64,000 bases of DNA from Candidatus Wirthbacteria bacterium (GTDB lineage Bacteria > Patescibacteriota > CG2-30-54-11): NCBI GenBank assembly GCA_903889905.1, contig CAISZI010000040.1:64148-128147 (forward strand), read 5' to 3'. The position numbers and the translations under genes are program-made. Shown here in pieces: positions 1,430 to 15,418 of this stretch. The notes below the pieces were generated by a model, which was given only the letters and a program-made list of their open reading frames with translations, did not search any database and was not told where the DNA came from. The number at the start of each line of letters is the position of its first letter. Within the stretch, counting starts at the first letter, position 1.

Positions 1430-1716
1430 TAGGATTGTTTGATAAATTTGGTCAAGGATTGAAATTATACCATTAGTTGGCGTTGGATTGACAACAAGAT
1501 CAATTCTGTTATGATAGTGATGCTTTAATACATTAAAGCAATTTCGGACCAAGTAGGTTTGGATACAGGAATCAAGCGATCGGGGAAAATACCAGGTGTG
1601 AGCCCCGACAGACGTTCCGAATCGAACACAGCCGATTGATTTCCGCCTGAGGCGGACGGGGAACCGACGTTTTGTCGGCAGAAGACCGTTATATCGAAAA
1701 AGTGCTGAATTAGACT

Positions 1717-1802
1717 GTCATTGCGAGGACTCTGCGCCGCGGCAATCTAGTGATTTAGAATGAAACTAGATTGGCACGCCTTGCAGCAAGGCTCGCAACG
1801 AC
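1717..1802. repeat. Palindromic MITE/REP-like element with terminal inverted repeats GTCATTGCGAG ... CTCGCAACGAC and an internal hairpin GCCTTG-CAG-CAAGGC
   Basis: The inverted termini are read directly. Related copies are at 2856-2889 and 11875-11909, and a related family forms the array at 15418-15939. Confidence 0.6.
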
Positions 1803-1922
1803 GATAAAAGCAGAAATTCAGCAATCAAGGATGGGACCACGGGTCGCGATACGCGCTCGTTCCTTCAACGCAAGTTTGGAGGAATGAGCGCGTATTTTTT
1901 GTTTTCATTTTTGGAGTTTGGT

Positions 1923-2786
1923 ATGTGTCGACTCAAAATGGCGGTGCAGAACAAAGGTAAGCTGGGGCGAGTGATTTTACCGTTTTTGGAACGCGCGGGG
2001 CTGCGGTTCGACATTGTCGAGCGGCAGTTGGTGGCGCGGTGCCAGAATTTTCCACTGGATTTGCTGTTTGTACGACACAGCGACGTGGGTGTGATTGTCG
2101 AGGATGCGGCAGCTGACCTTGGGGTGATCGGGAGCGATGTGCTGGCGGAACAGGCGTTTGGGGTTAAACATATCATGAACCTTGAACTGGCGAAATCCAG
2201 TCTTTGCCTGGCGGTGCCGGAAAATCTTGGCGCAACACAAGCGAGTGACTTGAATGGCAAGAAAATCGCCACGAATTTCCCGAATTTAAGCAAGCAATAC
2301 TTTGAAAAATTAGGTTTGAACGTGGAAATTGTCCGGTTGCGCGGGTCGGTGGAAATCGCACCCGTGCTGGAAATTGCTGTTGGCATCGTCGACCTGGTCG
2401 CCACGGGCACGACACTGCGGCAGAATCGGCTCAAAGTAATCGACAAAGTGATGGAAGCGCAAGGCGTTTTGGTCGCTGGCAAAACCCTTGGCGATGACCA
2501 GTTGAAATTGGTCGAGGAACTCAAATTCCGATTTTTATCCGTCATTGAGGCCAGAGACAAGAAATTACTGGTGTTTAACCTGCCCAAGGCGTCTTTGGAG
2601 CAGCTTGGCAGTATCGGCCTGGGACTGGATGGCCCAACCGTGTCGGAGGTCCGCAATGGCACGGTAGAAATGGTGGACGTACAAATCGTGGTGGAGGAAA
2701 GCGAGTCGTGGGGCGTGATGCGCAAGCTCAAGGGGATTGGGGCGAGCGGGATATTGGTGATGGGGATAGAGAGACTTGTTAGTTGA
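1923..2786 (+). CDS. hisG: ATP phosphoribosyltransferase, long form with C-terminal regulatory domain
   Basis: The ORF 1884-2786 reads ...LKMAVQNKGKLGRVILPFLERAGL...DLGVIGSDVLAEQ, which is collinear with long-form HisG. The start is most likely ATG 1923 (GGAG 8 nt upstream), not 1884. Confidence 0.85.
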   Translation: MCRLKMAVQNKGKLGRVILPFLERAGLRFDIVERQLVARCQNFPLDLLFVRHSDVGVIVEDAAADLGVIGSDVLAEQAFGVKHIMNLELAKSSLCLAVPENLGATQASDLNGKKIATNFPNLSKQYFEKLGLNVEIVRLRGSVEIAPVLEIAVGIVDLVATGTTLRQNRLKVIDKVMEAQGVLVAGKTLGDDQLKLVEELKFRFLSVIEARDKKLLVFNLPKASLEQLGSIGLGLDGPTVSEVRNGTVEMVDVQIVVEESESWGVMRKLKGIGASGILVMGIERLVS

Positions 2787-2855
2787 GGGTTGGGAACGGG
2801 AATTGTAGGGGCGTTTCATGAACCGCCCTCTTAAATTAATCGAATGAATGAAAGA

Positions 2856-2889
2856 TTGCCACGCCTTGAGGCAAGGCTCGCAATGACGG
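2856..2889. repeat. Half copy of the palindromic element (hairpin GCCTTG-AG-GCAAGGC plus terminus CTCGCAATGACGG) in the hisG-hisD intergenic region
   Basis: It is nearly identical to the right half of the element at 1717-1802. No left GTCATTGCGAG terminus is seen upstream. Confidence 0.5.
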
Positions 2890-2898
2890 ATAAATTGT

Positions 2899-4227
2899 TT
2901 GAATATAGGAAAAAACATGATTAACATCTACAAATGGTCGGATACCGACCCCAAAATCAAACAAAAAATCATGCAGCGGGCCATGGTGGATATTGGTGAA
3001 ATTCGCGATTACGTGGCTGGCTGGATGGACAAAGTGCGAAATGAAGGCGACACGGCCATCGTGGAATATGTGCGGCAGTTTGACAAAAAGGATTTTGAAC
3101 TTGGCGAGTTGGTTGTGTCACAGGCGGAAATCAAAGCGGCTTATAACAGGGTTGACCCGCGCGTTATTGCCGCAATTCGCAAACAAATTGCCATCTCGAC
3201 CAAGGTGGCCGAGGAGCGTTTGCGTAAACCGTTTGAGCTCAAAGAACTGACACCGGGTGTCCAGACGGGTTACAAAATCACACCTATCGACGCGGTGGGC
3301 CTCACCGTTCCAGCCGGGCAAGTGCCACTTCCGACCGTAATGCAAATCCTGGCTGTGAATGCCAAAGTGGCTGGTGTACCGCGGGTTGTGGCTTGCTTTC
3401 CGCCCACAGGGGATTATCCCGAAATGTTGATTGCTGCCGATATTGCCGGCGTGGATGAAATTTACCGCGTTGGTGGAATTGCCGGCATTGCGGCCATGAC
3501 CTATGGCACCAAGACGATCAAACCGGTGTTGAAAATTTTTGGTCCTGGCAGTAAATACACACAGGCAGCCAAACTGCTGGCGTTTGGCAAAGTAAATATC
3601 GATATGGTGGCTGGGCCGTCAGAAGCGTTGATCCTGGCTGATGAAAGTGCCAATCCTGCTTATTGTGCTGCTGACATACTGGCACGCGCCGAGCATTCGC
3701 CGGATGCCTGTGGCGTATTAGTGACGACGTCAGCCGCCTTGGCTTTGGCAACAAAGGACGAGATCGAAAAGCAGTTTGGGTTGCTCAAAAGGCAGGAAAT
3801 CATCAGGCAGTCTTTGGCAATGTATTCGGCCATCATTGTCGTCGCAACGTGGGACGAAGCGATTGAGCTCACAAACGAATACAGTCCCGAGCACCTGGAA
3901 ATCATGACCCGGGAACCGCTTCAGCTTTTGGACAAAATCCGCAATGCCGGTTCAATCTTTTTGGGCGACTATGCACCGGTCGCGGTCGGAGATTATGCCA
4001 GCGGTACCAGCCACATATTGCCGACCGGCCACTGGGCCAAAATGGCGTCAGCGGCTAGTGTCGAGACTTTTCAGAAAATATCGGAAGTGCAATTGTTGAC
4101 CAGAGTTGGTTTGGAGAACCTTGCCGATGTGGTGGATGTGATTGCGGATGTGGAAAGTTTGGACGCGCACTGGAATTCGGTCAATCAGCGGCTCAAGAAA
4201 CCAAGGAGAATGCGCGATGAAACTTGA
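2899..4227 (+). CDS. hisD: Histidinol dehydrogenase
   Basis: The 442 aa product is collinear with HisD (..GPGSKYTQAAK.., ..SPEHLEI.., GDYASGTSHILPT). Confidence 0.9.
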   Translation: MNIGKNMINIYKWSDTDPKIKQKIMQRAMVDIGEIRDYVAGWMDKVRNEGDTAIVEYVRQFDKKDFELGELVVSQAEIKAAYNRVDPRVIAAIRKQIAISTKVAEERLRKPFELKELTPGVQTGYKITPIDAVGLTVPAGQVPLPTVMQILAVNAKVAGVPRVVACFPPTGDYPEMLIAADIAGVDEIYRVGGIAGIAAMTYGTKTIKPVLKIFGPGSKYTQAAKLLAFGKVNIDMVAGPSEALILADESANPAYCAADILARAEHSPDACGVLVTTSAALALATKDEIEKQFGLLKRQEIIRQSLAMYSAIIVVATWDEAIELTNEYSPEHLEIMTREPLQLLDKIRNAGSIFLGDYAPVAVGDYASGTSHILPTGHWAKMASAASVETFQKISEVQLLTRVGLENLADVVDVIADVESLDAHWNSVNQRLKKPRRMRDET

Positions 4228-4882
4228 AGAACTGGTCAAACAATACAAGCTTAAAGCTGTTTGCTGCGACATGGATGGGGTGTTGATTGATTCTTTGGGA
4301 TTGGATCTAAAAGTCGTTAATGTCCTGTTGCGAGAAATTGGCTTGTCGCCGATTGCAGTGGCATTTATTAAAGCCAATTTTGCCCTCAGCGTGACGGATT
4401 TTTGGACAGCGATATTGGTTGAAATTGGTTGCAAGCCGAGTAATCCTTTCTTACCGCAAGTTGTAGACAGTTACAACGCAGTCAGACGCAAGGAAAAGAT
4501 CGAACTGCTGCCGCTGGTTAGGACATTCCTGGAGCAGACAAAGAAACTGGGGTTGGCGGCGACCGTCGTCTCCAACAATGCGGACGAAGAAGTGAAACAG
4601 ATTTTGCTGAAAAGTGGTATAAAGCCATATTTTGGATTTGTCATCGGAAACACACAAATCGATTACCGCAAGCCAGCGCCTGATTGTTATTTGCTGGCGG
4701 CCAAAAAACTCAAAGTGGAACCGCTGCATTGTCTTGTCATCGAAGATTCTGTGATTGGGTTGCAGGCTGCCAGAGCGGCTGGAATCGGTTGCGTCCTTGG
4801 CGTAGCAACAGGTGGTGAAAGCCTTGAGGCACTCGGAATTTACGCTGATCTGGTGATAAATGATTTAGGAGAATTGTTATGA
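4217..4882 (+). CDS. HAD-superfamily hydrolase (beta-phosphoglucomutase-like subfamily IA); candidate histidinol-phosphate phosphatase by operon context
   Basis: Taking the start at ATG 4217 (AAGGAG upstream), the N-terminus is MKLEELVKQYKLKAVCCDMDGVLIDS, which carries the HAD motif I DxDGxL. The C-terminal part has ..EDSVIGLQAARAAG.. Its start overlaps the hisD stop by 11 nt. Confidence 0.7.
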   Translation: MKLEELVKQYKLKAVCCDMDGVLIDSLGLDLKVVNVLLREIGLSPIAVAFIKANFALSVTDFWTAILVEIGCKPSNPFLPQVVDSYNAVRRKEKIELLPLVRTFLEQTKKLGLAATVVSNNADEEVKQILLKSGIKPYFGFVIGNTQIDYRKPAPDCYLLAAKKLKVEPLHCLVIEDSVIGLQAARAAGIGCVLGVATGGESLEALGIYADLVINDLGELL

Positions 4883-6207
4883 ACGCTCAATTGGGTGGCG
4901 ATGGCAAAATAGAAACCAATAATCAACCCCTGAGTTTATTCGAGATCCAAACCATGGCCAAAAGCGACAAAGCGCAGGCCGAAGTCGAGTTGCTGGCGGC
5001 ACTGCAAGTCATCTTCTGCGACCTGGCGATCGCAAGCGTCCGTATCAACCAGAGCGCTGTCTCCCTCAATTCCATCAACGGCATTGTCGTCATCGCGGGC
5101 GTGGAATACTTTTTCAAATTCCATTCCGAAGAAGGCGAAGAACAAACCATGCAGGAATATTATCGCAGCGAGCTCCTTAGCGAGGCAGGTTATGCAGTGA
5201 TGATGCCGGTTTATAAATCGACAGAAAGTGGCAAACAAATATTGATTTATCCCAAAGTGGACGCTCCGACGCTGTTTCAAGCCATGGACCAGATGGATCG
5301 CGGGTATTTGGTGGAGGGCAAATATCCAGAAGGATCTGAGCAGTTGTTACAAGCGGAACGGGAAGCGGATCGCCGTAAAGTTGAGGTTTTGTTGCGGACG
5401 CTTAAACTGGCTCCTGCCGCGGCCGTGGCGGCAGAAGGCATTAATCAATTGTTTTATGTGCGGCTCGCGGATAAAAGGACCACACCGCGCGTTGACCTGT
5501 TTTATCGGGACAAGGCCGTGCGGTTACCCGATGGCGGCGAAATCGGGTTCAATCAGCTGAGCCAGCTAAAATGGGTAATCAATGGCGTGGCCTATGACGA
5601 AACACTGGAGGATCTGATCCAAACCGCGACAGGGCTGCTTGATCCGCTGAGACTGGCAGAGTATCCGGTCGTTACGGCGCACGGCGATGATCACAATGGC
5701 AATAAATTTGTGACGCCAGAAGGACTGATTTACCTGGATCCCGCTTTTGCCGGTATGTATCAATACGCGCTCTTGAGCCAGGTCAAAACGACCTTTCACG
5801 ACACCCTGGCGCACCCATTGTGGTTATATAATCCGCAAGATTTTGCGGTGCAGCTTGAGCTGAAGATTGAGGATGGAATGGTTCGGATGGATAACGATTT
5901 CAACTGGCAAAAGGTAGCACCACTACGCGAGCAAATGTTGCAGATCAAGCTTGAGGAAATCTGGATTCCTCTGTTGCGAGAGCTGAAAAAGCGTGGTTGG
6001 TTAGAAGAGAATTGGGAGAACTATCTGCGCAAAGCACTTTTTGCCTGTCCGTTTCTGGTTTACAACCTGATTGATAATGCGCGCTATACAACGGATAAAT
6101 CGCTTTTTGCGTTGGCGCAAGCGGTCCGGATGGGCAGCAAATCCAAAAGTGGAATGATGGAGCCGTTTTTAGAAAAATTACGAACAGCCATTGAGGCATC
6201 GCCATGA
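4879..6207 (+). CDS. Kinase-like (aminoglycoside phosphotransferase / choline-kinase fold) protein embedded in the his operon
   Basis: VTAHGDDHNGNKF matches the APH catalytic HGDxHxGN motif, and LIYLDPAFAG looks like the metal-binding D-loop. Its start overlaps the HAD stop as ATGA, and its stop overlaps the hisC start. Confidence 0.55.
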   Translation: MNAQLGGDGKIETNNQPLSLFEIQTMAKSDKAQAEVELLAALQVIFCDLAIASVRINQSAVSLNSINGIVVIAGVEYFFKFHSEEGEEQTMQEYYRSELLSEAGYAVMMPVYKSTESGKQILIYPKVDAPTLFQAMDQMDRGYLVEGKYPEGSEQLLQAEREADRRKVEVLLRTLKLAPAAAVAAEGINQLFYVRLADKRTTPRVDLFYRDKAVRLPDGGEIGFNQLSQLKWVINGVAYDETLEDLIQTATGLLDPLRLAEYPVVTAHGDDHNGNKFVTPEGLIYLDPAFAGMYQYALLSQVKTTFHDTLAHPLWLYNPQDFAVQLELKIEDGMVRMDNDFNWQKVAPLREQMLQIKLEEIWIPLLRELKKRGWLEENWENYLRKALFACPFLVYNLIDNARYTTDKSLFALAQAVRMGSKSKSGMMEPFLEKLRTAIEASP

Positions 6208-7289
6208 ATGTAAACAAATTCATTAATCCCTGGATCTTGCAGCTCAAGTCCATTGACTGGGGCAAGTCAGTTCCTCAACGCGGTATACGACTCAACTTTG
6301 GTGAAAACCCAATTGCCTTTGAGCCAGCTTTGCAAGCCATTCGTGCTGAAGCCAGCAACGTGAACCGGTATCCGGAGGTCGATAAATCCAAAGAATACCA
6401 CTTGCTGGCCGATTATTGTGGCGTTAAACCCGATCAGGTCATAATGACGAATGCAGGCGATGATGCCATCGAAATGATTGCCCGGGTTTTCCTTGGCCCT
6501 GGAGATATGGCGCTGGCGGTCATTCCGAGCTATCCGTGTTACGCGGCAGCAACAGAAGTGGTGGGCGCATCGTTGGTTACGATGGAACTGGGGGCGCAAT
6601 TTCAGCTTGATGTCAGCGCATTGATCGAAACCGCTAAGCGTAATAAGGCAAAAGTAATCTGGATCGCCAATCCCAATAATCCAACCGGGAATCTTTTGCT
6701 TGATCTGGCACAGATTGGTCAAATTGCCCGTTCGGTCGATGCCATGCTGATCCTGGACGAGGCCTATTTTGAATTTTCGGAATTTAGTGCCGTTGGCTTG
6801 ATCAACAACAATCCCAATCTTGTCATTGTTCGAACTTTCAGCAAGGCTTATGGGCTGGCTGGTTTGTCGTTTGGTTACCTTTTGGGCAATCAGGAAACTA
6901 TCCAGTGCATGCGCCATCTGCAGGATGGTCCACAAATCTTCAGCGTCAACCGTTTGGCAAGGGCAGCGGCCAGGGCTGTATTGGAGAATCCAAACGCGGC
7001 GCAAGCTTTTGTCGATTCATTCAAATCTGCCAAGCGTCATATGGAAATGGGGTTGGCGCAAATACCGGGGATTGAAGTACTCCCAGGAGTGACAAGCTTT
7101 TCTGTATTGAGGCTGACAACCATGACTGCAAGTCAGTTCAAAAACAAGCTGGCCCAACAAGCTATATTCATTAAAGATTTAAGTATTTACAATGGGGTCA
7201 AGGACAACTTGATATATATGGGCATTCCAGCCCTTAATGACCAGCAAACGGTTTTAAGGGAAATAAAATCAATTCTGGAGGGAAAATAA
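6204..7289 (+). CDS. hisC: Histidinol-phosphate aminotransferase
   Basis: TFSKAYGLAGLSFGY is the PLP-lysine motif of class II aminotransferases / HisC. Confidence 0.85.
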   Translation: MNVNKFINPWILQLKSIDWGKSVPQRGIRLNFGENPIAFEPALQAIRAEASNVNRYPEVDKSKEYHLLADYCGVKPDQVIMTNAGDDAIEMIARVFLGPGDMALAVIPSYPCYAAATEVVGASLVTMELGAQFQLDVSALIETAKRNKAKVIWIANPNNPTGNLLLDLAQIGQIARSVDAMLILDEAYFEFSEFSAVGLINNNPNLVIVRTFSKAYGLAGLSFGYLLGNQETIQCMRHLQDGPQIFSVNRLARAAARAVLENPNAAQAFVDSFKSAKRHMEMGLAQIPGIEVLPGVTSFSVLRLTTMTASQFKNKLAQQAIFIKDLSIYNGVKDNLIYMGIPALNDQQTVLREIKSILEGK

Positions 7290-8020
7290 TGATCATCCTT
7301 CCTGCCATCGACATCCTGAACGGCAAATGTGTGCGACTTACCCGCGGCAATTTTCAGGACTCGAGGGTTTACTCAGTGAGTCCGCTGGAGGTGGCGGCCG
7401 AATTAAAATCCCTGGGCGCCACCTGGCTGCACCTGGTTGATCTGGATGGTGCGCGGCGTGGCAGCAGTTCTAATGGTCAGTTGATTCAGGAAATCGTGTC
7501 ATCGACGGGTCTCAAAATTGAGCTGGGTGGCGGCATCCGGACGCGTGAGGTGATAGAAGAGTGGCTCCAGCTCGGCATTGAACGTGTTATCCTCGGCACA
7601 ACGGCAGTGCAAAATCCAGATTTTGTGGTTGATGCAGTTCAGACTTTTGGGGCAGATCGTGTGGCTGTCGGCCTGGATTTCAAAGATCAAAAACTCGCCA
7701 TCAAAGGCTGGCTCCAAAACGTTGCAATTAATTGGAAAAAGTTGGTAGAGAAGTATGTAGAGGCCAATGTGACCAATTTTGTTGTGACCGATACTGGCCG
7801 GGATGGCATGTTGGAAGGACTAAATTGGCGCTTAATTGAAGAATTCTTAAAACTGCTTAAGCCTGACAATCTAGTCGCTTCCGGCGGAGTAAGTTCGCTT
7901 TCGGATTTGTCACGAGCGCAGGAACTGGGGTTGCAGGGTATCGTGGTTGGTAAGGCCTGGTATGAAGGTAAAGTGGACCTGGGCGAGGCGTTTCGATTGT
8001 ATGGCCAGGAGGAAAAGTGA
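7289..8020 (+). CDS. hisA: Phosphoribosylformimino-AICAR-ribotide isomerase
   Basis: MIILPAIDILNGKCVRLTRG... is the HisA N-terminus and the protein has the TIM-barrel HisA/HisF fold. Its start overlaps the hisC stop. Confidence 0.88.
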   Translation: MIILPAIDILNGKCVRLTRGNFQDSRVYSVSPLEVAAELKSLGATWLHLVDLDGARRGSSSNGQLIQEIVSSTGLKIELGGGIRTREVIEEWLQLGIERVILGTTAVQNPDFVVDAVQTFGADRVAVGLDFKDQKLAIKGWLQNVAINWKKLVEKYVEANVTNFVVTDTGRDGMLEGLNWRLIEEFLKLLKPDNLVASGGVSSLSDLSRAQELGLQGIVVGKAWYEGKVDLGEAFRLYGQEEK

Positions 8021-8661
8021 TCACGATCGTGGACTATGGCGCGGGAAATCTGACGTCGGTGAAGTGGGCGGTGGAAGAGTTGGGTTTTGAGGTGGAGGTG
8101 ACGGCTGATCCATTGCGCATTCTTGGCGCCGCCAAAGTCATCTTCCCCGGCGTCGGCGCGGCTGGACAGGCGATGGAAGAACTGGCGAAGCGCGGCTTGA
8201 TCGAATCGATTCGTGCAGTAGTTGCCAAGGGGACGCCCTTTTTGGGAATTTGCCTGGGGATGCAGATTTTGTTTGACTGGAGCGACGAAGATGGCGGGAT
8301 CAAATGCCTCGGTTTGCTCGCAGGTAAAGTGAAACGGTTTGATTTTGGCTCGAATTTAGCGCAGTTAAAAGTTCCGCACATGGGTTGGAATCAGGTACGA
8401 CAAACGGGTTTGGAAGCCAGCGGGCTATGGCAGGGAATTGGTAACGAAAGCAATTTCTACTTCGTGCATTCGTTTTATTGTGAGCCAGTGGACAAAGCAT
8501 TGGTGATCGGCGAAACAGAATACGGCGGTGTGTTTACCGCGGCAGTACAGCAAAAAAATGTCATTGCCACGCAGTTTCACCCGGAAAAAAGTGGTAGAGT
8601 GGGTTTACGGTTTTTGCAGAATTTTTGCCAAGGAGATTATGGTGGCCGTTTTACTCGATGA
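8017..8661 (+). CDS. hisH: Imidazole glycerol phosphate synthase, glutamine amidotransferase subunit
   Basis: MITIVDYGAGNLTSV...GICLGMQ...FHPEKS carries the class I GATase catalytic triad motifs. It uses a GTG start that overlaps the hisA stop. Confidence 0.88.
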   Translation: MITIVDYGAGNLTSVKWAVEELGFEVEVTADPLRILGAAKVIFPGVGAAGQAMEELAKRGLIESIRAVVAKGTPFLGICLGMQILFDWSDEDGGIKCLGLLAGKVKRFDFGSNLAQLKVPHMGWNQVRQTGLEASGLWQGIGNESNFYFVHSFYCEPVDKALVIGETEYGGVFTAAVQQKNVIATQFHPEKSGRVGLRFLQNFCQGDYGGRFTR

Positions 8662-9835
8662 CGGGCGCTTTGAACTGGATCGACCCTGGTGGTATTGGAT
8701 CAAATGCCGGATGGACAATCCGATCAGGTGGTTTGGAACCCGCAGTGTCGCGGGATTCTATTGGGATGCCTGGCGGTATGGTTTGCGGCCCTGGCAGCAG
8801 GTAATCGGGATCACGCCGGAACATAAGCGATGCGAAGATCTGACGCCTGCAACTGGAGCATGGTACGCAAGGCTGGATTTGGTACAAGTCCAAAAAAATG
8901 CCGAGCGAGCCATGCTCGTGATCGAGGAAAATCTAGCCCAGGTGAGGAATGCTGGTCAGGTTGATGCCGGTTTGGTGTGGTTTTTGGCTGGGGCACGACC
9001 AACTACCAGTAGCCCTGGCAATTGGGATCAACTCTGGCTACAAAAAATGGGGAACCCTGATTTATGGATGTGCCTTCCCAGCCTGTTTGGCCTTCGTTAT
9101 TTTTCCTATCTGTTCAATCGTGACCTTTGCTCCCACATTCTCAGTTCCCAGCAAGTGGCTTTGGCCCCATACAGGAAGACAACTGTCGAACAAACGGTGG
9201 CGGACCTTCTGGCCGAGGATCCCTCGGATTATGACAAATTCGATCGATTGACGGATAGAGAAACTGGCTATTCGATGCCCTATGTTGGCGATCGGACCAA
9301 AAGCATGACCATATATGGTGCCCGGCAATTGCTAGTGGGCGCCAGTCCCGTCGAAGTGACAGTTTCTCGGGAACGTTATATCGAAGAGAAATCGCCATTG
9401 AATGTTTTCATTCGATTACAGATCTTGCTTGCGATTCGTACCGTTTCCGGACCAGCGTTTCGCTGGAGTTGGCGAGAGAACAAGAATTTCGATGCCATTG
9501 AATTTAAAAATGACGTTGAAAAACAGTACTGGCAGGAAGTTGAGACGGCAGTGCGGCAGGGAATACCGGCTAAATTTCCCTGGGTCACCCAGGACATGAT
9601 CTCGGCCGTGTGGAGAACTTGCCATGGGTTTGCCGACAGTTCACTCGGCAATTATGAGATCGCGGGTTGGGGGTTTTATGGTGACAAGGAACAAATCGGC
9701 AAAACGGAATTCGAACGTTTTTTGGCCGATAAACTCGAACCGATTTATCGCGAGCTGCAGATGGAGGAATGGGTCAATACCATGAAGAATAGAATCTTCA
9801 AATCTCAGGAAGGTAAACCCAAACAGCGTGATTAA
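8639..9835 (+). CDS. Trp-rich hypothetical protein X1 of an unrecognised family; paralogue of X2; embedded between hisH and hisF
   Basis: ATG 8639 has AAGGAG upstream. The product begins MVAVLLDDGRFELDRPWWYWI... and shares blocks with X2 (DRPWW, FLAGARP, GxPDL, KxYWxE, WVTxxMxxAxWxTxHGFxDxSLxxYxIAG). It overlaps the end of hisH by 23 nt. Confidence 0.65.
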   Translation: MVAVLLDDGRFELDRPWWYWIKCRMDNPIRWFGTRSVAGFYWDAWRYGLRPWQQVIGITPEHKRCEDLTPATGAWYARLDLVQVQKNAERAMLVIEENLAQVRNAGQVDAGLVWFLAGARPTTSSPGNWDQLWLQKMGNPDLWMCLPSLFGLRYFSYLFNRDLCSHILSSQQVALAPYRKTTVEQTVADLLAEDPSDYDKFDRLTDRETGYSMPYVGDRTKSMTIYGARQLLVGASPVEVTVSRERYIEEKSPLNVFIRLQILLAIRTVSGPAFRWSWRENKNFDAIEFKNDVEKQYWQEVETAVRQGIPAKFPWVTQDMISAVWRTCHGFADSSLGNYEIAGWGFYGDKEQIGKTEFERFLADKLEPIYRELQMEEWVNTMKNRIFKSQEGKPKQRD

Positions 9836-9920
9836 TTTGTTCGTTGTTGACGCAGCCCGGTAGAGTAATTGGTCTGGTAGAAGGTAAATACTGAATTTAT
9901 CAACTTTGGCAGAGGACAAA

Positions 9921-11093
9921 ATGGCGGTAATCTGGGAAAATGAGCGTTTTGTCTATGATCGGCCGTGGTGGTTTGGGATACAGCAGCGATGGAAGCATTT
10001 GCCCAAAATATTTGGGGGCCGCGGTTACCTGGACAATGTCTGGCTTGCCTATCAATCCGGCATGCGTCCCTGGCCACTTTGGTGCAGTACTGCCAAAGTG
10101 CCACGTGGGTGGGATGAAATCGTCGTGACGCAAACGCCCTGGTACACAACGATCGACCTCAAACAGGTTGAAAGCAAGGCCAGGCAGATGATGCAATTGA
10201 TCGCAAGGAAGGCATTATCAGCAGACTATTTCTGGACTGTCAGTGAGGAACTAATCTGGTTTCTGGCCGGCGCACGACCTGCCATGTACGGGTTTGCCCG
10301 GAGTCAATTGCAATGGTTGAAATTAGCGGGTGACCCTGATTTATGTCATGCACTGGATTCCATGTTTTGTGCTCATTCCAGCTCACTTTTGATCAATCGT
10401 CGCCTCGGCGGTTTGATCATTGCCGCGCATCCAGAGATCTATCAACCATGGCGATGTTCAAGTGTGGAGAAGACGATTGACAGGGTTCTGAGCCAAAGTG
10501 TCAATTCCGGCATAGTGAGAGGCCGTTTGAGTGAGAAAAGCAGCAAGCTGTCATTGCCATTCAGCGCCAACCGTTATCAACGGGATGCCATATCCTTAGC
10601 CAAGGAGCTACTCTTGGGAAAATGTCCGGAACATCTCCGGGCGATACAGGACCGTTTGTTACCAAAGCGAACGCCGGAGTATGCTTTTGTTGATTATTTG
10701 ATCAATCAGGCGATTCAATCGTGTTCGGATGATGCACGCATCTGGTGGTCATCCATGGGGAGGGATTTTGGTCAAATACAATTCAAACGCGAGACTGAAA
10801 AAAAGTACTGGGAAGAAATTCAGGCGGCAGTCGAAGCAAAAGCCGTTGCCAGGACAGCCTGGGTAACCAGGGAAATGGTCTATGCTATCTGGAAAACGAC
10901 GCACGGTTTCGTGGATAGGAGTTTGACGTATTATGACATTGCTGGTGTGCGTTGCTATGGTGTGACTGATCTGGTTGGCAAAACCGCTCTGGATCGCTGG
11001 ATGAGTCAGGAGTTGGATGTTCTTGGCCAAAAAATTGGGTTGCAGGAGTGGGTAACGGCGGTACAGATGAACATTAAAGACAGGGACAAATAA
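9921..11093 (+). CDS. Trp-rich hypothetical protein X2 (tandem paralogue of X1)
   Basis: The ORF is 9906-11093, but ATG 9921 (GAGGA upstream; MAVIWENERFVYDRPWWFGI) aligns with the X1 N-terminus. I estimate roughly 30% identity to X1 across the whole length. It ends immediately before the hisF start at 11094. Confidence 0.65.
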   Translation: MAVIWENERFVYDRPWWFGIQQRWKHLPKIFGGRGYLDNVWLAYQSGMRPWPLWCSTAKVPRGWDEIVVTQTPWYTTIDLKQVESKARQMMQLIARKALSADYFWTVSEELIWFLAGARPAMYGFARSQLQWLKLAGDPDLCHALDSMFCAHSSSLLINRRLGGLIIAAHPEIYQPWRCSSVEKTIDRVLSQSVNSGIVRGRLSEKSSKLSLPFSANRYQRDAISLAKELLLGKCPEHLRAIQDRLLPKRTPEYAFVDYLINQAIQSCSDDARIWWSSMGRDFGQIQFKRETEKKYWEEIQAAVEAKAVARTAWVTREMVYAIWKTTHGFVDRSLTYYDIAGVRCYGVTDLVGKTALDRWMSQELDVLGQKIGLQEWVTAVQMNIKDRDK

Positions 11094-11867
11094 ATGCTTA
11101 CCAAACGCATCATTCCCTGTCTCGACGTCAAACATGGCCGCGTCACCAAAGGTGTTCGTTTTGCGCAAAATCGCGACATTGGCGATCCGGTGGAACTGGC
11201 GCGAAAGTATTATCGGGACGGCGCCGACGAGTTGGTGTTTTATGACATCGGCGCTTCGCCCGAGGACAAAGGCATTTTGATCGACTGGGTGCAAAATGTG
11301 GCCAAAGCCATCCACATTCCTTTTGCCGTCGGTGGCGGCATCCGTTCTGTCACGGACATGCGGGCTGTTCTGCTCGCCGGCGCCGAAAAAGTCAGTATCA
11401 ACAGTGCAGCGGTTTTGAATCCGCAGCTTATCGCCGACGGTGCCAAAGCGTTTGGTGCGCAATGCGTGGTGCTGGGTGTAGACGTGAAACGGGTTACTGC
11501 CTCGGCGTCAGTCCCGAGCGGGTTTGAGGTTTACATCCATGGTGGGCGCAAACCAATGTACCTGGATGCGCTCGGGTGGATCCAGCGGGCAGCCGAACTG
11601 GGCGCGGGCGAAGTGTGTGTCAACAGTATTGATGCGGATGGCACGAAAGCGGGTTATGATCTTGATCTGTTGGAGCTGGTGGTTGATGCCGTTGGTATTC
11701 CGGTAATTGCATCGGGTGGCGCGGGATCGATTGAGGATATCATTTCGGTTTTTCGGCAGGCCCATGTCGATGCGGCGCTGGTGGCGTCGATTGTGCATGA
11801 GGGAACGGTGACGATGGGGGAGATCAAAAGGAAATTGGGAGAAGAAGGTTTTTTAGTCAGGAATTAA
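11094..11867 (+). CDS. hisF: Imidazole glycerol phosphate synthase, cyclase subunit
   Basis: [23 protein letters not shown]...VFYDI...GGGIRS is a canonical HisF. Confidence 0.92.
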
Positions 11868-11874
11868 TTATTCC

Positions 11875-11909
11875 GTCATTGCGAGCCATGCAGCATGGCT
11901 CGCAATGAC
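11875..11909. repeat. Perfect palindrome GTCATTGCGAGCCATGC-A-GCATGGCTCGCAATGAC (17-bp arms) between hisF and hisIE; same termini as the MITE/REP-like family
   Basis: Read directly. It sits 8 nt after the hisF stop and 12 nt before the hisIE start. Confidence 0.8.
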
Positions 11910-11921
11910 AATGGAGGGAAA

Positions 11922-12533
11922 ATGCCAAAAGAACTTTCGGATCTTATTTTCCAAAACTCCCTCATCCCCGTCATCGTCCAGGACGTGGCGACGCGCGACG
12001 TGCTTATGCTTGCCTGGCAAAATCAGGAAGCGATCGACAAAACTGTAGAAACCAAGGAAATGTGGTTCTGGTCGCGTTCGCGGCAGCAGCTTTGGCATAA
12101 AGGGGAAACCAGCGGCAATCGACTGCTGGTGTGTGGCGTACGTGTGGATTGTGACCGCGACACGCTGCTTTATCTGGTTAAGCCGACGGGGCCAGCTTGC
12201 CACACGGGCCAGGGAACGTGCTTTGGGATCAAGGCGTTTTCATTGGCTATTCTTGAACAATTGATCGCCAGCCGTAAACAAAACCCGCAGAGTAACTCCT
12301 ATACCAATTTACTGCTTGATGATCCCAAGAGTATTTTGGAGAAAATCATCGAAGAAGCAGGCGAAGTGGTGCAGGCCGTGGCAAAGCATGAAGGCACAAG
12401 ACAAATTACCTGGGAAGTGTCGGATCTGCTTTATCATCTGCTAGTATTGCTTGGCAGCGAAGGAATTCCGCTCAGTGCAATACTGGCAGAGCTAGCGGCT
12501 CGACATGATGAGCAGAAGGAACAGCTTTCCTGA
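11922..12533 (+). CDS. hisI: Bifunctional phosphoribosyl-AMP cyclohydrolase / phosphoribosyl-ATP pyrophosphatase
   Basis: MPKELSDLIFQNSLIPVIVQD...WSRSRQQLWHKGETSGN...CDRDTLL is the HisI part. The C-terminal ...EEAGEVVQA...EVSDLLYHLLVLL is the HisE MazG-like part. ATG 11922 has a GGAGGG SD upstream, whereas the ORF-track start 11895 lies inside the palindrome. Confidence 0.85.
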   Translation: MPKELSDLIFQNSLIPVIVQDVATRDVLMLAWQNQEAIDKTVETKEMWFWSRSRQQLWHKGETSGNRLLVCGVRVDCDRDTLLYLVKPTGPACHTGQGTCFGIKAFSLAILEQLIASRKQNPQSNSYTNLLLDDPKSILEKIIEEAGEVVQAVAKHEGTRQITWEVSDLLYHLLVLLGSEGIPLSAILAELAARHDEQKEQLS

Positions 12534-12616: not shown

Positions 12617-15418
12617 ATGGAAGATACGATTTTTGCCTCGGGAACGTTCTGGTTGATCAGTTTGCTGGTCGTAACCACGGTTTGGATCGTGCTGACGCTG
12701 CTGCGGCAGTCACGCATTCGCAAAATTAACACGCCCACCGTGGTGCTCGCGCTTTCAGTCCCCAAAAATAACGAAAAATCACCCCTCTCGGCTGAACAGT
12801 TGTTTGCTTCCCTGCATGGCTTGCATCGCAAGCATTTTCAGGCGCTGACGTATGGCCAGGTCAATATCTCACTGGAGATTCTGGCCCAAAAAGGCGCCAT
12901 CCGGTTTTATGTGACGGTACCCGAAAATCAGCAAAAATACATCTGCAACCAGATTTACGCCCAGTATCCGGATGTCAAAATCGAACCAGTGGATGACTAT
13001 GCCAAGGTCTATGATCTGAGTGTGATTGAACGCGAAGCGGCGGGGGCCAATATTGTGCTGAACCGGCCGTTCGTTTATCCGATCCGTACGTTTCAGAATT
13101 TTGACGTCGACCCGCTGGCATCCATGACCTCAGCCTTGTCTAACCTCGATGAAGGCAATGAAGTCTGGGTGCAAATGGTACTCCGGCCAGTCGGCAACAG
13201 CTGGCACGCGCGGGCGCACCACTTTGTCGGTCAACTGCGCAATGGCAAGCAGGGATTTTTGGGCAGTGTGTTGATCAATTTGATTCGTGAAATTGTCCAT
13301 ATAATTTTCATCGGCATTCCACGTGCGTTACTTTTTAATAAAGCGGGACTGGAATCCGGACCAGGCAGTGAAACTAAGATTAGTGACGCTGATTCGGCTG
13401 CTCTTAAATTGATTGAAGAAAAAACGACAAAGCTGGGGTTCGCGGTTAATTTGAGAATTCTCAGCATCGCGCCGACGCGAGAAGCGGCCACCACGCATGT
13501 GCAGCAGTTTATCTCGACCTTGCAGCAGTTCAATCAGCCCAATGCCAACGGGTTTCGCATGGGCCGACGTATCCTGAGCATGGGTAATTTCAAGGAAAAG
13601 TACAAAAACCGCCGTTCCAAAGGTTCCAGCATTATCATGAATACCGAAGAACTGGCGTCGTTTTATCACTTGCCCAACCAAATGGTGACGACACCGACGA
13701 TTGTCTGGTCGCGCGCGCGCAAAGGCGAACCACCGCCCAATTTGCCCATTACCACACCCGATGGCGACAACCGTAATTTGACGATTTTTGCCAAAACTGA
13801 CTTTCGGCACGAGGAACGCAAATTCGGTATCAAACAGCTTGACCGCCTGCGGCATACGTATGTGATTGGAAAAACCGGCATGGGTAAATCCACGATGCTG
13901 GCCAACATGGCAATTGACGACATCCGTTCTGGGCGTGGCGTGGCGGTGATTGACCCGCATGGCGACCTAATCGAAACCGTGCTGGATTACATTCCCAATA
14001 AACGCGTCAACGACGTAGTGATGTTTAACCCGGCAGACCGGCATTTCCCGGTGGCACTCAATATGCTCGAATCAGTCAACGACGAGTTCAAAGGCCTGGT
14101 GGCGTCGGGTTTGATCGCGGTTTTTTATAAAATGTATGAAAACAGCTGGGGCCCGCGCATGGAGCATATTTTGCGCAATTCCATCCTGGCGCTACTGGAT
14201 TCGCCCAATTCGACGCTGCTTGGGATTCCGCGCATGCTGGTGGACAAGGATTATCGCAATTCTGTGACGCGAAACATTACCAACCCGACTGTCGGCATGT
14301 TTTGGGAAAGTGAATTTCCCAAAATTGAAACCAGCCGTACGGCAGCCGAATCGCTAGGTGCAGTGCAGAACAAAATGGGTCAGTTCCTGAGCGCGCCGAT
14401 CGTGCGCAACATCGTGGGCCAGCCCAAAAGTACGATCGACATCCGCAGCATCATGGACGAAGGTAAAATTCTGCTGGTCAACCTGTCCAAAGGGTTGATC
14501 GGCGAAGATGTCAGCGCCCTGATGGGTGCCATGATGATCACCAAAGTTCAACTCGCCGCCATGTCGCGGTCGGATGTGCCTGAGGAGAAGCGTGTGCCGT
14601 TCTATATGTACGTTGACGAATTTCAAAACTTTGCCACCAGCAGCTTTGCCACGATTTTGTCCGAAGCACGCAAATACAAACTTGGTCTCACCATGGCCAA
14701 CCAGTACATCAGCCAAATGCCCGAAGATGTTCGCGCCGCCGTGTTTGGCAACGTGGGCACGTTGATCACCTTTTCCATTGGTGCCAGTGACGCGCCATTT
14801 ATTGCCAAGGAATTCATGCCGGTTTTTGATGACAACGACGTTATCCATTTGGACAAATACAACATTTATCTGCGCCTCACCGTTGATGGCCGCAATACTG
14901 AACCTTTTAGCGCCACGACGTTGCCGTTGCCAATCAACAAAAGCAACGCCCGGGACAAAATTTTGCGTGTCACGCGTGAACGCTACAGCAAACCGGTGGA
15001 CAAGGTTGAAGAAAAAATTGAACAAATGGTGGGTTTTCACCAGCTCAAACAAGGGGAATCGGAAAAAGTTGCGCCGGACACCAAAAAAATTGTTGCTGCC
15101 TCACTCAAACCGGCGGTTCCAGCTCCAGCTACCGCCAAGCCAGCGGCTGTCGCTGTGATCAGTCCTCGTGCCAGCAATCCTGCCATGCAAGGCGGAAATG
15201 CCAAAATTCCACAACCCGGCGCGACAGCAATTGCTATCCCAAATGCACCCGTAACTTCACCCCAATCGACTCCAAATCCAGCACCTCCCGCCAATCATCA
15301 GGACAATGCCCGCGCCTCCATTGCTCAAGCTGCCACCCAGGTAGCCGCCAATCAGCGTGAGCGTAACCGTTTGAATCGCAACAAACCACAACCTCCGCCA
15401 CTAGGGCCAAAAGGTTAG
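12617..15418 (+). CDS. Membrane-anchored FtsK/HerA-superfamily P-loop ATPase of the TraG/VirD4/VirB4-like (DUF87-type) group; probable DNA-translocation / type IV secretion-like ATPase; Pro/Ala-rich C-terminal tail
   Basis: There is an N-terminal TM helix (FWLISLLVVTTVWIVLTLL). Walker A is VIGKTGMGKST, there is a VIDPHGDL motif, and Walker B is FYMYVDEFQNFA. The last ~130 aa are low-complexity and rich in P/A/T. Confidence 0.65.
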   Translation: MEDTIFASGTFWLISLLVVTTVWIVLTLLRQSRIRKINTPTVVLALSVPKNNEKSPLSAEQLFASLHGLHRKHFQALTYGQVNISLEILAQKGAIRFYVTVPENQQKYICNQIYAQYPDVKIEPVDDYAKVYDLSVIEREAAGANIVLNRPFVYPIRTFQNFDVDPLASMTSALSNLDEGNEVWVQMVLRPVGNSWHARAHHFVGQLRNGKQGFLGSVLINLIREIVHIIFIGIPRALLFNKAGLESGPGSETKISDADSAALKLIEEKTTKLGFAVNLRILSIAPTREAATTHVQQFISTLQQFNQPNANGFRMGRRILSMGNFKEKYKNRRSKGSSIIMNTEELASFYHLPNQMVTTPTIVWSRARKGEPPPNLPITTPDGDNRNLTIFAKTDFRHEERKFGIKQLDRLRHTYVIGKTGMGKSTMLANMAIDDIRSGRGVAVIDPHGDLIETVLDYIPNKRVNDVVMFNPADRHFPVALNMLESVNDEFKGLVASGLIAVFYKMYENSWGPRMEHILRNSILALLDSPNSTLLGIPRMLVDKDYRNSVTRNITNPTVGMFWESEFPKIETSRTAAESLGAVQNKMGQFLSAPIVRNIVGQPKSTIDIRSIMDEGKILLVNLSKGLIGEDVSALMGAMMITKVQLAAMSRSDVPEEKRVPFYMYVDEFQNFATSSFATILSEARKYKLGLTMANQYISQMPEDVRAAVFGNVGTLITFSIGASDAPFIAKEFMPVFDDNDVIHLDKYNIYLRLTVDGRNTEPFSATTLPLPINKSNARDKILRVTRERYSKPVDKVEEKIEQMVGFHQLKQGESEKVAPDTKKIVAASLKPAVPAPATAKPAAVAVISPRASNPAMQGGNAKIPQPGATAIAIPNAPVTSPQSTPNPAPPANHQDNARASIAQAATQVAANQRERNRLNRNKPQPPPLGPKG

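Follow-up and report, generated by a model that had tools for sequence, protein, structure and literature searches.

A histidine biosynthesis (his) operon was analysed in a 64-kb stretch of DNA from a Candidatus Wirthbacteria bacterium (contig CAISZI010000040.1, positions 64,148 to 128,147), hereafter the window, with a focus on a kinase-like protein encoded in this operon and termed K. The operon reads hisG-hisD-HAD-K-hisC-hisA-hisH-X1-X2-hisF-hisIE (1923-12533), in which HAD denotes a haloacid dehalogenase-type protein and X1 and X2 are orphan proteins. No gene for imidazoleglycerol-phosphate dehydratase (IGPD, the HisB activity) was found in the window, and K occupies the slot that IGPD takes in related operons. 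We consider it probable that K, although not homologous to IGPD, replaces it, probably at the expense of ATP, by phosphorylation followed by elimination. The functional statements on K made below are predictions from genomic context and fold. IGPD is a Mn-dependent lyase that needs no cosubstrate and, to our knowledge, the IGPD step is otherwise universal in histidine biosynthesis.

The gene content and order had been proposed in an earlier reading made from the letters of the DNA alone (the sequence-only reading), and both were confirmed by Pfam and NCBIfam. The same reading had held that all canonical steps except IGPD are represented, and Pfam, NCBIfam and an IGPD hidden Markov model (HMM) agree with this, the phosphatase being a candidate only. 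The operon therefore falls short of the canonical ten steps: hisG, hisD, hisC, hisA, hisH, hisF and hisIE are encoded, IGPD is lacking, and the phosphatase is putative.

Absence of IGPD and the kinase-like protein K

The claim that hisB is missing was borne out within the 64 kb. The PROSITE signatures IGPD_1 and IGPD_2, which describe the HHxxE metal-binding motifs, were absent in the six frames of the window. Moreover, an IGPD HMM built from four sequences of the candidate phyla radiation (CPR) and those of E. coli and Actinoplanes was run against all stop-to-stop open reading frames (ORFs) of the window, among them those of K, X1 and X2, and nothing was matched at E ≤ 10. The same HMM found divergent CPR IGPDs, with approximately 30% identity to E. 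coli, at E values of 1e-117 or better, and over 2.54 Mb (the window and the loci described below), the only match beyond the CPR IGPDs was the Actinoplanes gene. As the divergent CPR enzymes were recovered, the negative result in K-containing operons is considered reliable rather than an artefact of sensitivity. Comparison by hhalign of K with IGPD, and of X1/X2 with IGPD, gave probabilities of <1%. As a separate observation, the CPR IGPD genes (L171-L173 and L175-L177, e.g., L175 11298-11957) carry LDHVVVED as the first metal motif, compared with DDHHTVED in E. coli, one His of HHxxE being replaced.

The structure of K was predicted by AlphaFold from a 43-sequence alignment (predicted local distance difference test score, pLDDT, 94.1; predicted template modelling score, pTM, 0.91), and the model has a bilobal, protein-kinase-like fold of the APH/MtnK type. 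In the 43 sequences, K80, E93, the loop H268-G-D270-D-H272-N273-G-N275 and D287 were invariant, which provides the HxDxxxxN loop and the Mg-binding Asp; K80 and E93 were assigned to beta3 and alphaC, respectively, by position and without superposition. Many more residues beyond the kinase core were invariant in the same alignment. Because the kinase fold is predicted with confidence and the catalytic set is invariant, there is little doubt that K, whose family is uncharacterised, is an active phosphotransferase.

Neither Pfam nor NCBIfam gave a match for K, X1 or X2 among the operon ORFs. For K of the window, no Pfam match was obtained at E ≤ 0.01 and the gathering score of PF01636 (APH) was not reached; a precomputed PF01636 match was present in only 5 of 52 K homologues, and the search of K against PDB sequences gave no match. 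The 5-methylthioribose, N-acetylhexosamine, aminoglycoside and choline kinases (PF01636 and relatives) share the fold of K as well as its motifs, namely, HxDxxxxN, the Mg-binding Asp and the Lys-Glu pair. Unlike these kinases, K has no Pfam, NCBIfam or PDB-sequence match, carries approximately 130 residues on top of the common APH core, and occurs in another genomic context. The closest structural neighbours of K included the kinase halves of ATP-dependent dehydrations (LxmK, TvaE, 25-hydroxysteroid kinase and fructosamine-3-kinase), with a sequence identity of 7-14%. Compared with IGPD (PF00475), K shows no sequence or profile similarity, has the bilobal kinase fold in place of the IGPD fold, lacks the HHxxE motifs, and is predicted to use ATP. 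Targeted literature searches found no description of the K kinase family.

A pattern scan for relatives of K gave no fewer than 550 among the GTDB species genomes and 506 or more among the JGI metagenomes. The best 160 K loci were kept and classified by tblastn with the his proteins of the window and IGPD queries. Complete or near-complete his operons (K-type operons) made up 19 of these loci besides the window, or approximately 14 distinct ones without near-duplicates. Most were from CPR (Levy-, Peregrini-, Peri-, Harrison- and Kerfeldbacteria), and the rest were from at least two non-CPR lineages. IGPD was absent from all 19 operons, as determined by tblastn with IGPD queries and the IGPD HMM. 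In 17 of the 19, the gene immediately before hisH is K, which takes the hisB position of the hisBHAF core; this core is held to be the conserved centre of his operons (PMC10138114). The usual order was hisG-(hisC)-hisD-(HAD)-K-hisH-hisA-hisF-hisIE. On higher-GC, non-CPR contigs, the order hisG-hisC-hisH-hisF-hisA-hisIE-K-hisD (L104) and another architecture with K (L009/L018) were observed. The K-type operon L087 (8705-10791) apparently has one His_biosynth (hisA/hisF-type) gene, and a second GATase gene lies past hisIE.

The best 120 matches of the window HisD were 58-70% identical, and those with names belonged to Gottesman-, Woese-, Roizman- and Jacksonbacteria, Microgenomates and Saccharimonadales. 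As these matches come from CPR, the window is placed in CPR, where it appears Microgenomates-like. The contexts of seven of the nearest HisD homologues (64-68% identity, CPR), located on long contigs, were inspected. Six of the seven had the order (hisR)-hisG-(hisC)-hisD-IGPD-(HAD)-hisH-hisA/F-hisI-hisE, referred to as IGPD-type operons, and one was a lone hisD; K was found in none of the seven. The two types can be compared in Levybacteria (L002; hisG-hisD-K-hisH-hisA-hisF-hisIE-hisS) and Gottesmanbacteria (L173; hisG-hisD-IGPD-HAD-hisH-hisF-hisI-hisE-hisS). In a neighbour-joining (NJ) tree of HisD, calculated without support values, the window and L002 branch separately within the IGPD-type group, and a second CPR group is entirely K-type. 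In the K tree, the K proteins of his operons are neighbours in the order of the leaves.

K and IGPD alternate one for one among close relatives, in the same slot past hisD and before hisH, and apparently have done so more than once. Alternation of this kind is the hallmark of in situ non-orthologous displacement, and the separate positions of the window and L002 inside the IGPD-type group imply repeated replacement. The same net step, from imidazole glycerol phosphate (IGP) to imidazole acetol phosphate (IAP), is presumed for both proteins. The sequence-only reading had named, as one of three explanations between which it did not choose, that one of the inserted genes replaces IGPD; the alternation supports this for K, and no support was obtained for X1 and X2, which were found in no other operon or genome.

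Proposed reaction of K and its genomic contexts

According to the favoured explanation, the operon would be a functional histidine pathway controlled by tRNA-His, in which the IGPD gene was displaced in place by K. Using ATP, K would phosphorylate a side-chain hydroxyl of IGP, most plausibly at the carbinol adjacent to the imidazole. The phosphate would then leave phospho-IGP spontaneously or on K, with assistance from the imidazole ring, and the resulting enol would tautomerise to IAP, which HisC, a phosphatase and HisD would convert to histidine. The net reaction would be IGP + ATP → (phospho-IGP) → IAP + ADP + Pi. In a sub-variant, HAD would strip the phosphate from IGP, K would dehydrate imidazole glycerol to imidazole acetol, and HisC would give histidinol directly.

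Phosphorylation followed by elimination is proposed because the pathway needs the dehydration of IGP, the sole conserved extra protein is a kinase, and kinases with this fold make leaving groups in other systems. The LxmK/LxmY and TvaE lanthipeptide-type dehydratases, 25-hydroxysteroid kinase and fructosamine-3-kinase presumably all turn a hydroxyl into a leaving group. The product of fructosamine-3-kinase sheds its phosphate spontaneously. These enzymes differ from K in their substrates, which are peptides, steroids and glycated amines. Furthermore, LxmK/LxmY, TvaE(F) and the steroid kinase/lyase employ a separate lyase (fructosamine-3-kinase excepted), whereas K has no conserved one. Among the 20 K-type operons, no dedicated phospho-lyase partner was conserved, and K and sometimes HAD were the only conserved non-his genes. 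Elimination would have to proceed spontaneously or be carried out by K itself, with its approximately 130 extra residues.

The HAD protein matched PF13419 with 92.9 bits and PF00702 with 80.6 bits, both above cut-off, and motifs I-IV were found in its translation as DMDGV, SNN, K(PAPD) and EDS. It resembles the sugar-phosphate phosphatases of subfamily IA (beta-phosphoglucomutase/YniC-like). Its score against TIGR01656 was 32 bits, far below the cut-off of 84, and no tblastn match was obtained with the HAD-IIIA domain of E. coli HisB (HisB-N). Of the 19 other K-type operons, 11 have a HAD homologue beside K, and a HAD gene (HAD_2) is present in 12 of the 20 K-type and 4 of the 6 IGPD-type operons. 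As HAD accompanies either K or IGPD, it is best read as the phosphatase of the pathway, most likely acting on histidinol phosphate; since the type of operon makes no difference to whether HAD is present, IGPD, rather than the phosphatase, is the counterpart of K. The assignment of HAD as histidinol-phosphatase in the sequence-only reading is accordingly plausible, in that the gene also occurs in IGPD-type CPR operons, and the role itself stays a prediction from genomic context.

HAD is fused to K in two proteins (P0021 and P0053). On JGI contig 3300043331, the order is hisG-hisD-hisC-(HAD~K fusion)-(hisH~A~F fusion)-hisIE, and the fusion fills the hisB slot, mirroring the HAD~IGPD architecture of E. 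coli HisB. The likeness to bifunctional HisB is that a HAD phosphatase adjoins, or is fused to, the protein in the dehydratase slot; the differences are that this HAD belongs to subfamily IA rather than IIIA and that its fusion partner is a kinase. On the same contig, a 724-aa hisH-hisA-hisF triple fusion adjoins the 641-aa HAD-K fusion. K was also considered as a novel histidinol-phosphate phosphatase, and this was rejected: K has a full kinase core, co-occurs with or is fused to the HAD phosphatase, and alternates with IGPD and not with HAD.

Besides his operons, K was found in two other contexts. In Chloroflexi, hisD and K overlap, with a divergent hisG-hisZ. In the majority of loci (Proteobacteria, Actinobacteria and Cyanobacteria), K lies in clusters of an ABC transporter, a hisD-like gene, K, a Zn-dependent alcohol dehydrogenase (Zn-ADH) and a short-chain dehydrogenase/reductase (SDR), often near a HisC-like aminotransferase, an alpha-hydroxy-acid oxidase, a GntR/HutC regulator and hutU/hutH. 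This conserved transporter-hisD paralogue-K-Zn-ADH-SDR operon was observed on Shinella pShin-03 (L083), a Klebsiella plasmid (L169) and Pantoea pPAT9B02 (L170), in Rahnella (L030), and elsewhere. It is apparently catabolic, and its substrate is possibly an imidazole polyol or alcohol that is funnelled to histidine. A literature search on a catabolic HisD-kinase cluster found nothing relevant.

Of the 111 loci with sufficient flank, 97 have a HisD homologue at most 3.5 kb away from K. At the positions corresponding to E. coli 259/262/326/327/360/367/414/419, the non-CPR partners of K read E-H-E-H-N-A-E-H in 97 of 97 scored, the CPR proteins read R-H-E-H-D-H-E-H in 20 of 20 (K-type and IGPD-type), and E. 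coli HisD reads Q-H-E-H-D-H-E-H. The partner of K outside CPR (loci L008-L168) is a HisD paralogue with a Q259E/D360N ligand swap and H367A in E. coli numbering, and it is labelled 'histidinol dehydrogenase' by the Prokaryotic Genome Annotation Pipeline (PGAP). The sole hisD of the non-CPR his locus L009 is of this paralogue type. At L001, outside any his operon, a 763-aa protein consists of a partial HisD joined to K.

Several points weigh against K as the IGPD replacement. The absence of IGPD covers the 64-kb window and the operon loci, and a hisB elsewhere in the K-type genomes is possible. Approximately 140 of the 160 K loci lie outside his operons, next to the distinct HisD paralogue in transporter, dehydrogenase or hut clusters. 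Such hosts (Mesorhizobium, Rahnella and Klebsiella plasmids) surely have hisB, and the ancestral role of the K family may have been other than IGP dehydration and coupled to the HisD paralogue; the use of K in CPR may be a recruitment. Kinase-driven dehydratases usually need a separate lyase, for which the K-type operons offer no conserved candidate. In addition, the NJ trees carry no support values, and the K-type loci were gathered by searching for K, an ascertainment bias that does not by itself force the absence of IGPD there.

One alternative places IGPD elsewhere in the genome and regards K as an accessory, HisD-linked kinase that would salvage or repair dephosphorylated intermediates, for example, as an imidazole glycerol, imidazole acetol or histidinol kinase, its place in the hisB slot being incidental. 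The near-universal partnership of K with a HisD homologue and the presence of K in catabolic-looking clusters of bacteria with a normal hisB agree with this alternative, which would require only a plain kinase reaction and no extra chemistry. However, K and IGPD are strictly mutually exclusive, at the same position, in 20 K-type and 6 related IGPD-type operons. It would mean that small CPR genomes had relocated hisB alone and yet kept a repair kinase in each of these operons, and the replacement apparently happened more than once. We regard an accessory kinase as possible, if on the whole unlikely.

A smaller chance is given to a reading in which K and the HisD paralogue (E259/N360/A367 vs Q(R)259/D360/H367) form a widespread module with a reordered end of the histidine pathway, the CPR operon being a secondary recruitment of K alone. 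In this module, the HisD paralogue would oxidise imidazole glycerol to imidazole-glycerate, K with ATP would dehydrate the latter to imidazole-pyruvate, and transamination would yield histidine. The module would serve in biosynthesis (L104, L009 and the hisD-K/hisG-hisZ loci of Chloroflexi) as well as in the hut-linked catabolic operons found in rhizobia and on enterobacterial plasmids. As the HisD of the window is of the canonical type, the canonical step order is the natural reading for this operon.

Operon layout, leader and the X1/X2 pair

The features of the operon are listed in Table 1. From the promoter-like site through hisIE, the region 1488-12533 (+ strand) is a single compact transcription unit.

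Table 1. Features of the his operon and its leader in the window
Feature	Position	Strand	Evidence
Sigma-70-like promoter, TTGACA-16-TATGAT with TG	1488..1515	+	11/12 matches; consensus match only
T-box leader, His specifier GAA-CAC-A, bulge UGGG, terminator stem 1849-1895 then U tract	1530..1905	+	Rfam RF00230
hisG long form, ATP phosphoribosyltransferase with C-terminal domain	1923..2786	+	PF01634+PF08029, TIGR00070
hisD, histidinol dehydrogenase	2917..4227	+	PF00815 at 2.5e-138; 63-70% identity to CPR HisD; canonical active-site signature R-H-E-H-D-H-E-H
HAD-IA phosphatase, candidate histidinol-phosphate (or IGP) phosphatase	4217..4882	+	PF13419/PF00702
K, APH/MtnK-fold small-molecule kinase (442 aa), proposed IGPD replacement	4879..6207	+	
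hisC, histidinol-phosphate aminotransferase	6204..7289	+	PF00155; TIGR01141 246.8 bits, slightly below cut-off 276.6
hisA	7289..8020	+	TIGR00007 255.8 bits, above cut-off
hisH	8017..8661	+	TIGR01855 221 bits
X1, orphan protein, 398 aa, X2 paralogue, passenger	8639..9835	+	no family match; codon use as in neighbours
X2, orphan protein, 390 aa	9921..11093	+	31% identity to X1 over 385 aa, gapless
hisF	11094..11867	+	TIGR00735 332 bits
hisIE fusion	11895..12533	+	PF01502+PF01503 (PRA-CH+PRA-PH)

Seven of the ten gene junctions are overlaps or have zero gap; the sequence-only reading had described almost every junction as a start/stop overlap (ATGA, GTGA or overlaps of 11-23 nt). HisD and HAD overlap by 11 nt, with AAGGAG just before the HAD ATG at 4217. 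The HAD/K and K/hisC junctions are both ATGA, hisC/hisA is TAATG and hisA/hisH is GTGA; hisH and X1 overlap by 23 nt, and X2/hisF is TAAATG with a gap of 0. Real gaps were found at three junctions only, namely, hisG-hisD (112-130 nt), X1-X2 (85 nt) and hisF-hisIE (27 nt). The start of hisG at 1923, also taken from the sequence-only reading, is correct because the longer ORF from 1884 would begin within the terminator stem of the leader. Directly downstream of the operon (12617-15418), a 933-aa protein is encoded with weak matches to TrwB/TraG/HerA-type ATPases (type IV coupling-protein-like).

The leader gave a full-length match to RF00230 at 1530-1867 with 38.2 bits (E 5e-7), below the Rfam gathering score of 93. 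The alignment spans positions 1-219 and contains GAA-CAC-A and GGAUGGGACCA. The hallmarks of a T-box were all found, namely, Stem I, a specifier codon followed by a purine, the T-box UGGN and a downstream terminator; the terminator is a 20-bp stem with a U tract (1849-1905; -40.7 kcal/mol, z -6.9). CAC is a histidine codon, and the UGGG bulge would base-pair with the CCA terminus of tRNAs having C73, as in bacterial tRNA-His. As a his T-box stands ahead of hisG, the whole unit, including K, X1 and X2, is most likely switched on by uncharged tRNA-His. The leader shares with the T-box his operons of Firmicutes its place upstream of hisG, Stem I, the CAC specifier loop, the T-box sequence and the terminator. 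It differs from them in scoring below the Rfam threshold and in holding a palindromic insertion of approximately 100 nt. Several related CPR his operons (L085-L088, L172, L175 and L176) begin with a TrpR-family (HisR-like) gene in place of a T-box. T-box control of his genes has been described (PMC9413887).

The leader bears on two further explanations of the operon. In the first, the pathway would be truly incomplete, in that an episymbiont would rely on its host for histidine or a late intermediate and its operon would be partial or decaying. CPR bacteria generally have reduced biosynthesis, which fits. Decay is opposed by nine intact, translationally coupled his genes under a His T-box, and the IGPD-less architecture was kept in approximately 17 distinct operons over a wide divergence (HisD 48-65% identical); an incomplete pathway is accordingly judged improbable. 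In the second, which the sequence-only reading had raised in view of the four extra genes inside the operon, the product would be a modified histidine derivative. This idea was left unsupported: the eight active-site residues of the window HisD are those of its canonical IGPD-type relatives, the T-box with its CAC specifier points to a response to uncharged tRNA-His, and no tailoring-enzyme families were detected by Pfam or NCBIfam. A modified product is therefore considered very improbable.

A palindromic element resembling repetitive extragenic palindromic sequences or miniature inverted-repeat transposable elements (REP/MITE-like), GTCATTGCGAG...CTCGCAAYGAC, occurs three times, always at intergenic spots of the operon. 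A full copy of approximately 86 nt lies within the T-box stem III loop (1717-1802), a half copy is in the hisG-hisD gap (2853-2887), and a perfect palindrome of 17+17 nt extends over the start codon of hisIE (11875-11909). When one mismatch or fewer was allowed, copies were located at the three spots named and once within hisC (6519-6530).

X1 and X2 align over 385 aa with 31% identity and no indel (E 6e-72). Since their codon usage and GC content by codon position match those of neighbouring genes, they are real, constrained, resident genes. A word-index search of 5.8 billion clusters with X1 returned only X1 itself, and an X1/X2 HMMER profile search of 1.84 billion representative proteins returned only X1 and X2. 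Searches against Pfam, NCBIfam, PHROGs, PADLOC and PDB (sequence and profile) gave no match. In 177 loci, no homologue was found by tblastn, the related his operons of both types included, and hhalign showed no relation to K. An AlphaFold2 model of X1 from the two-sequence alignment reached a pLDDT of 34, the sequences being too few. The flanks of the pair showed no direct or inverted repeats that would mark a mobile insertion, and no compositional anomaly was detected.

Other CPR his operons also carry unrelated inserts, such as a RAYT transposase and an AAA_18 protein (L085) and a split AAA ATPase (L007); two acyltransferases are inserted in L009. A 195-aa gene of the L085 operon, suspected as a divergent IGPD, is the RAYT-type transposase. 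'Alien' and 'ORFan' genes within operons are a recognised phenomenon (PMC10138114). As X1 and X2 occur in no related operon or database and other CPR his operons hold unrelated inserts, we conclude that they are a lineage-specific duplicated orphan pair and passengers outside the conserved pathway; the passenger explanation of the sequence-only reading thus suits this pair. As they are co-transcribed with the his genes, they may have a role under histidine starvation.

It could also be supposed that X1 and X2, perhaps as a heterodimer, are the missing dehydratase and that K does something else. The two genes are embedded between hisH and hisF with translational coupling to both, and their gapless alignment and host-like codon use make them look constrained. 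Nevertheless, the 19 other IGPD-less operons have no homologue, so that the step would still be missing there; the profiles of X1 and X2 resemble neither IGPD nor K, and unrelated inserts are common in CPR his operons. A dehydratase formed by X1 and X2 is thus hardly credible.

Implications for histidine biosynthesis

The folds and the chemistry of histidine biosynthesis are held to be conserved in all of life except at the phosphatase step (PMC9798254), and in the literature searched, non-homologous replacement within this pathway is described for that step alone. A 2026 GapMind survey of missing amino-acid enzymes contains no alternative IGPD, and literature searches on an alternative IGPD and on CPR histidine biosynthesis found nothing relevant. 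If the proposed role of K is true, a kinase-fold, ATP-consuming IGPD step would be the second exception in this textbook pathway and a new activity for the APH superfamily. It would also correct metabolic reconstructions that would label these CPR and other genomes as histidine auxotrophs, and it would show how organisms could resist herbicides and antimicrobials that target IGPD. As the K family is large (>1000 pattern matches in two collections) and is also found in cultivable rhizobia, Rahnella and Pantoea and on Klebsiella plasmids, genetic study of its function is feasible.

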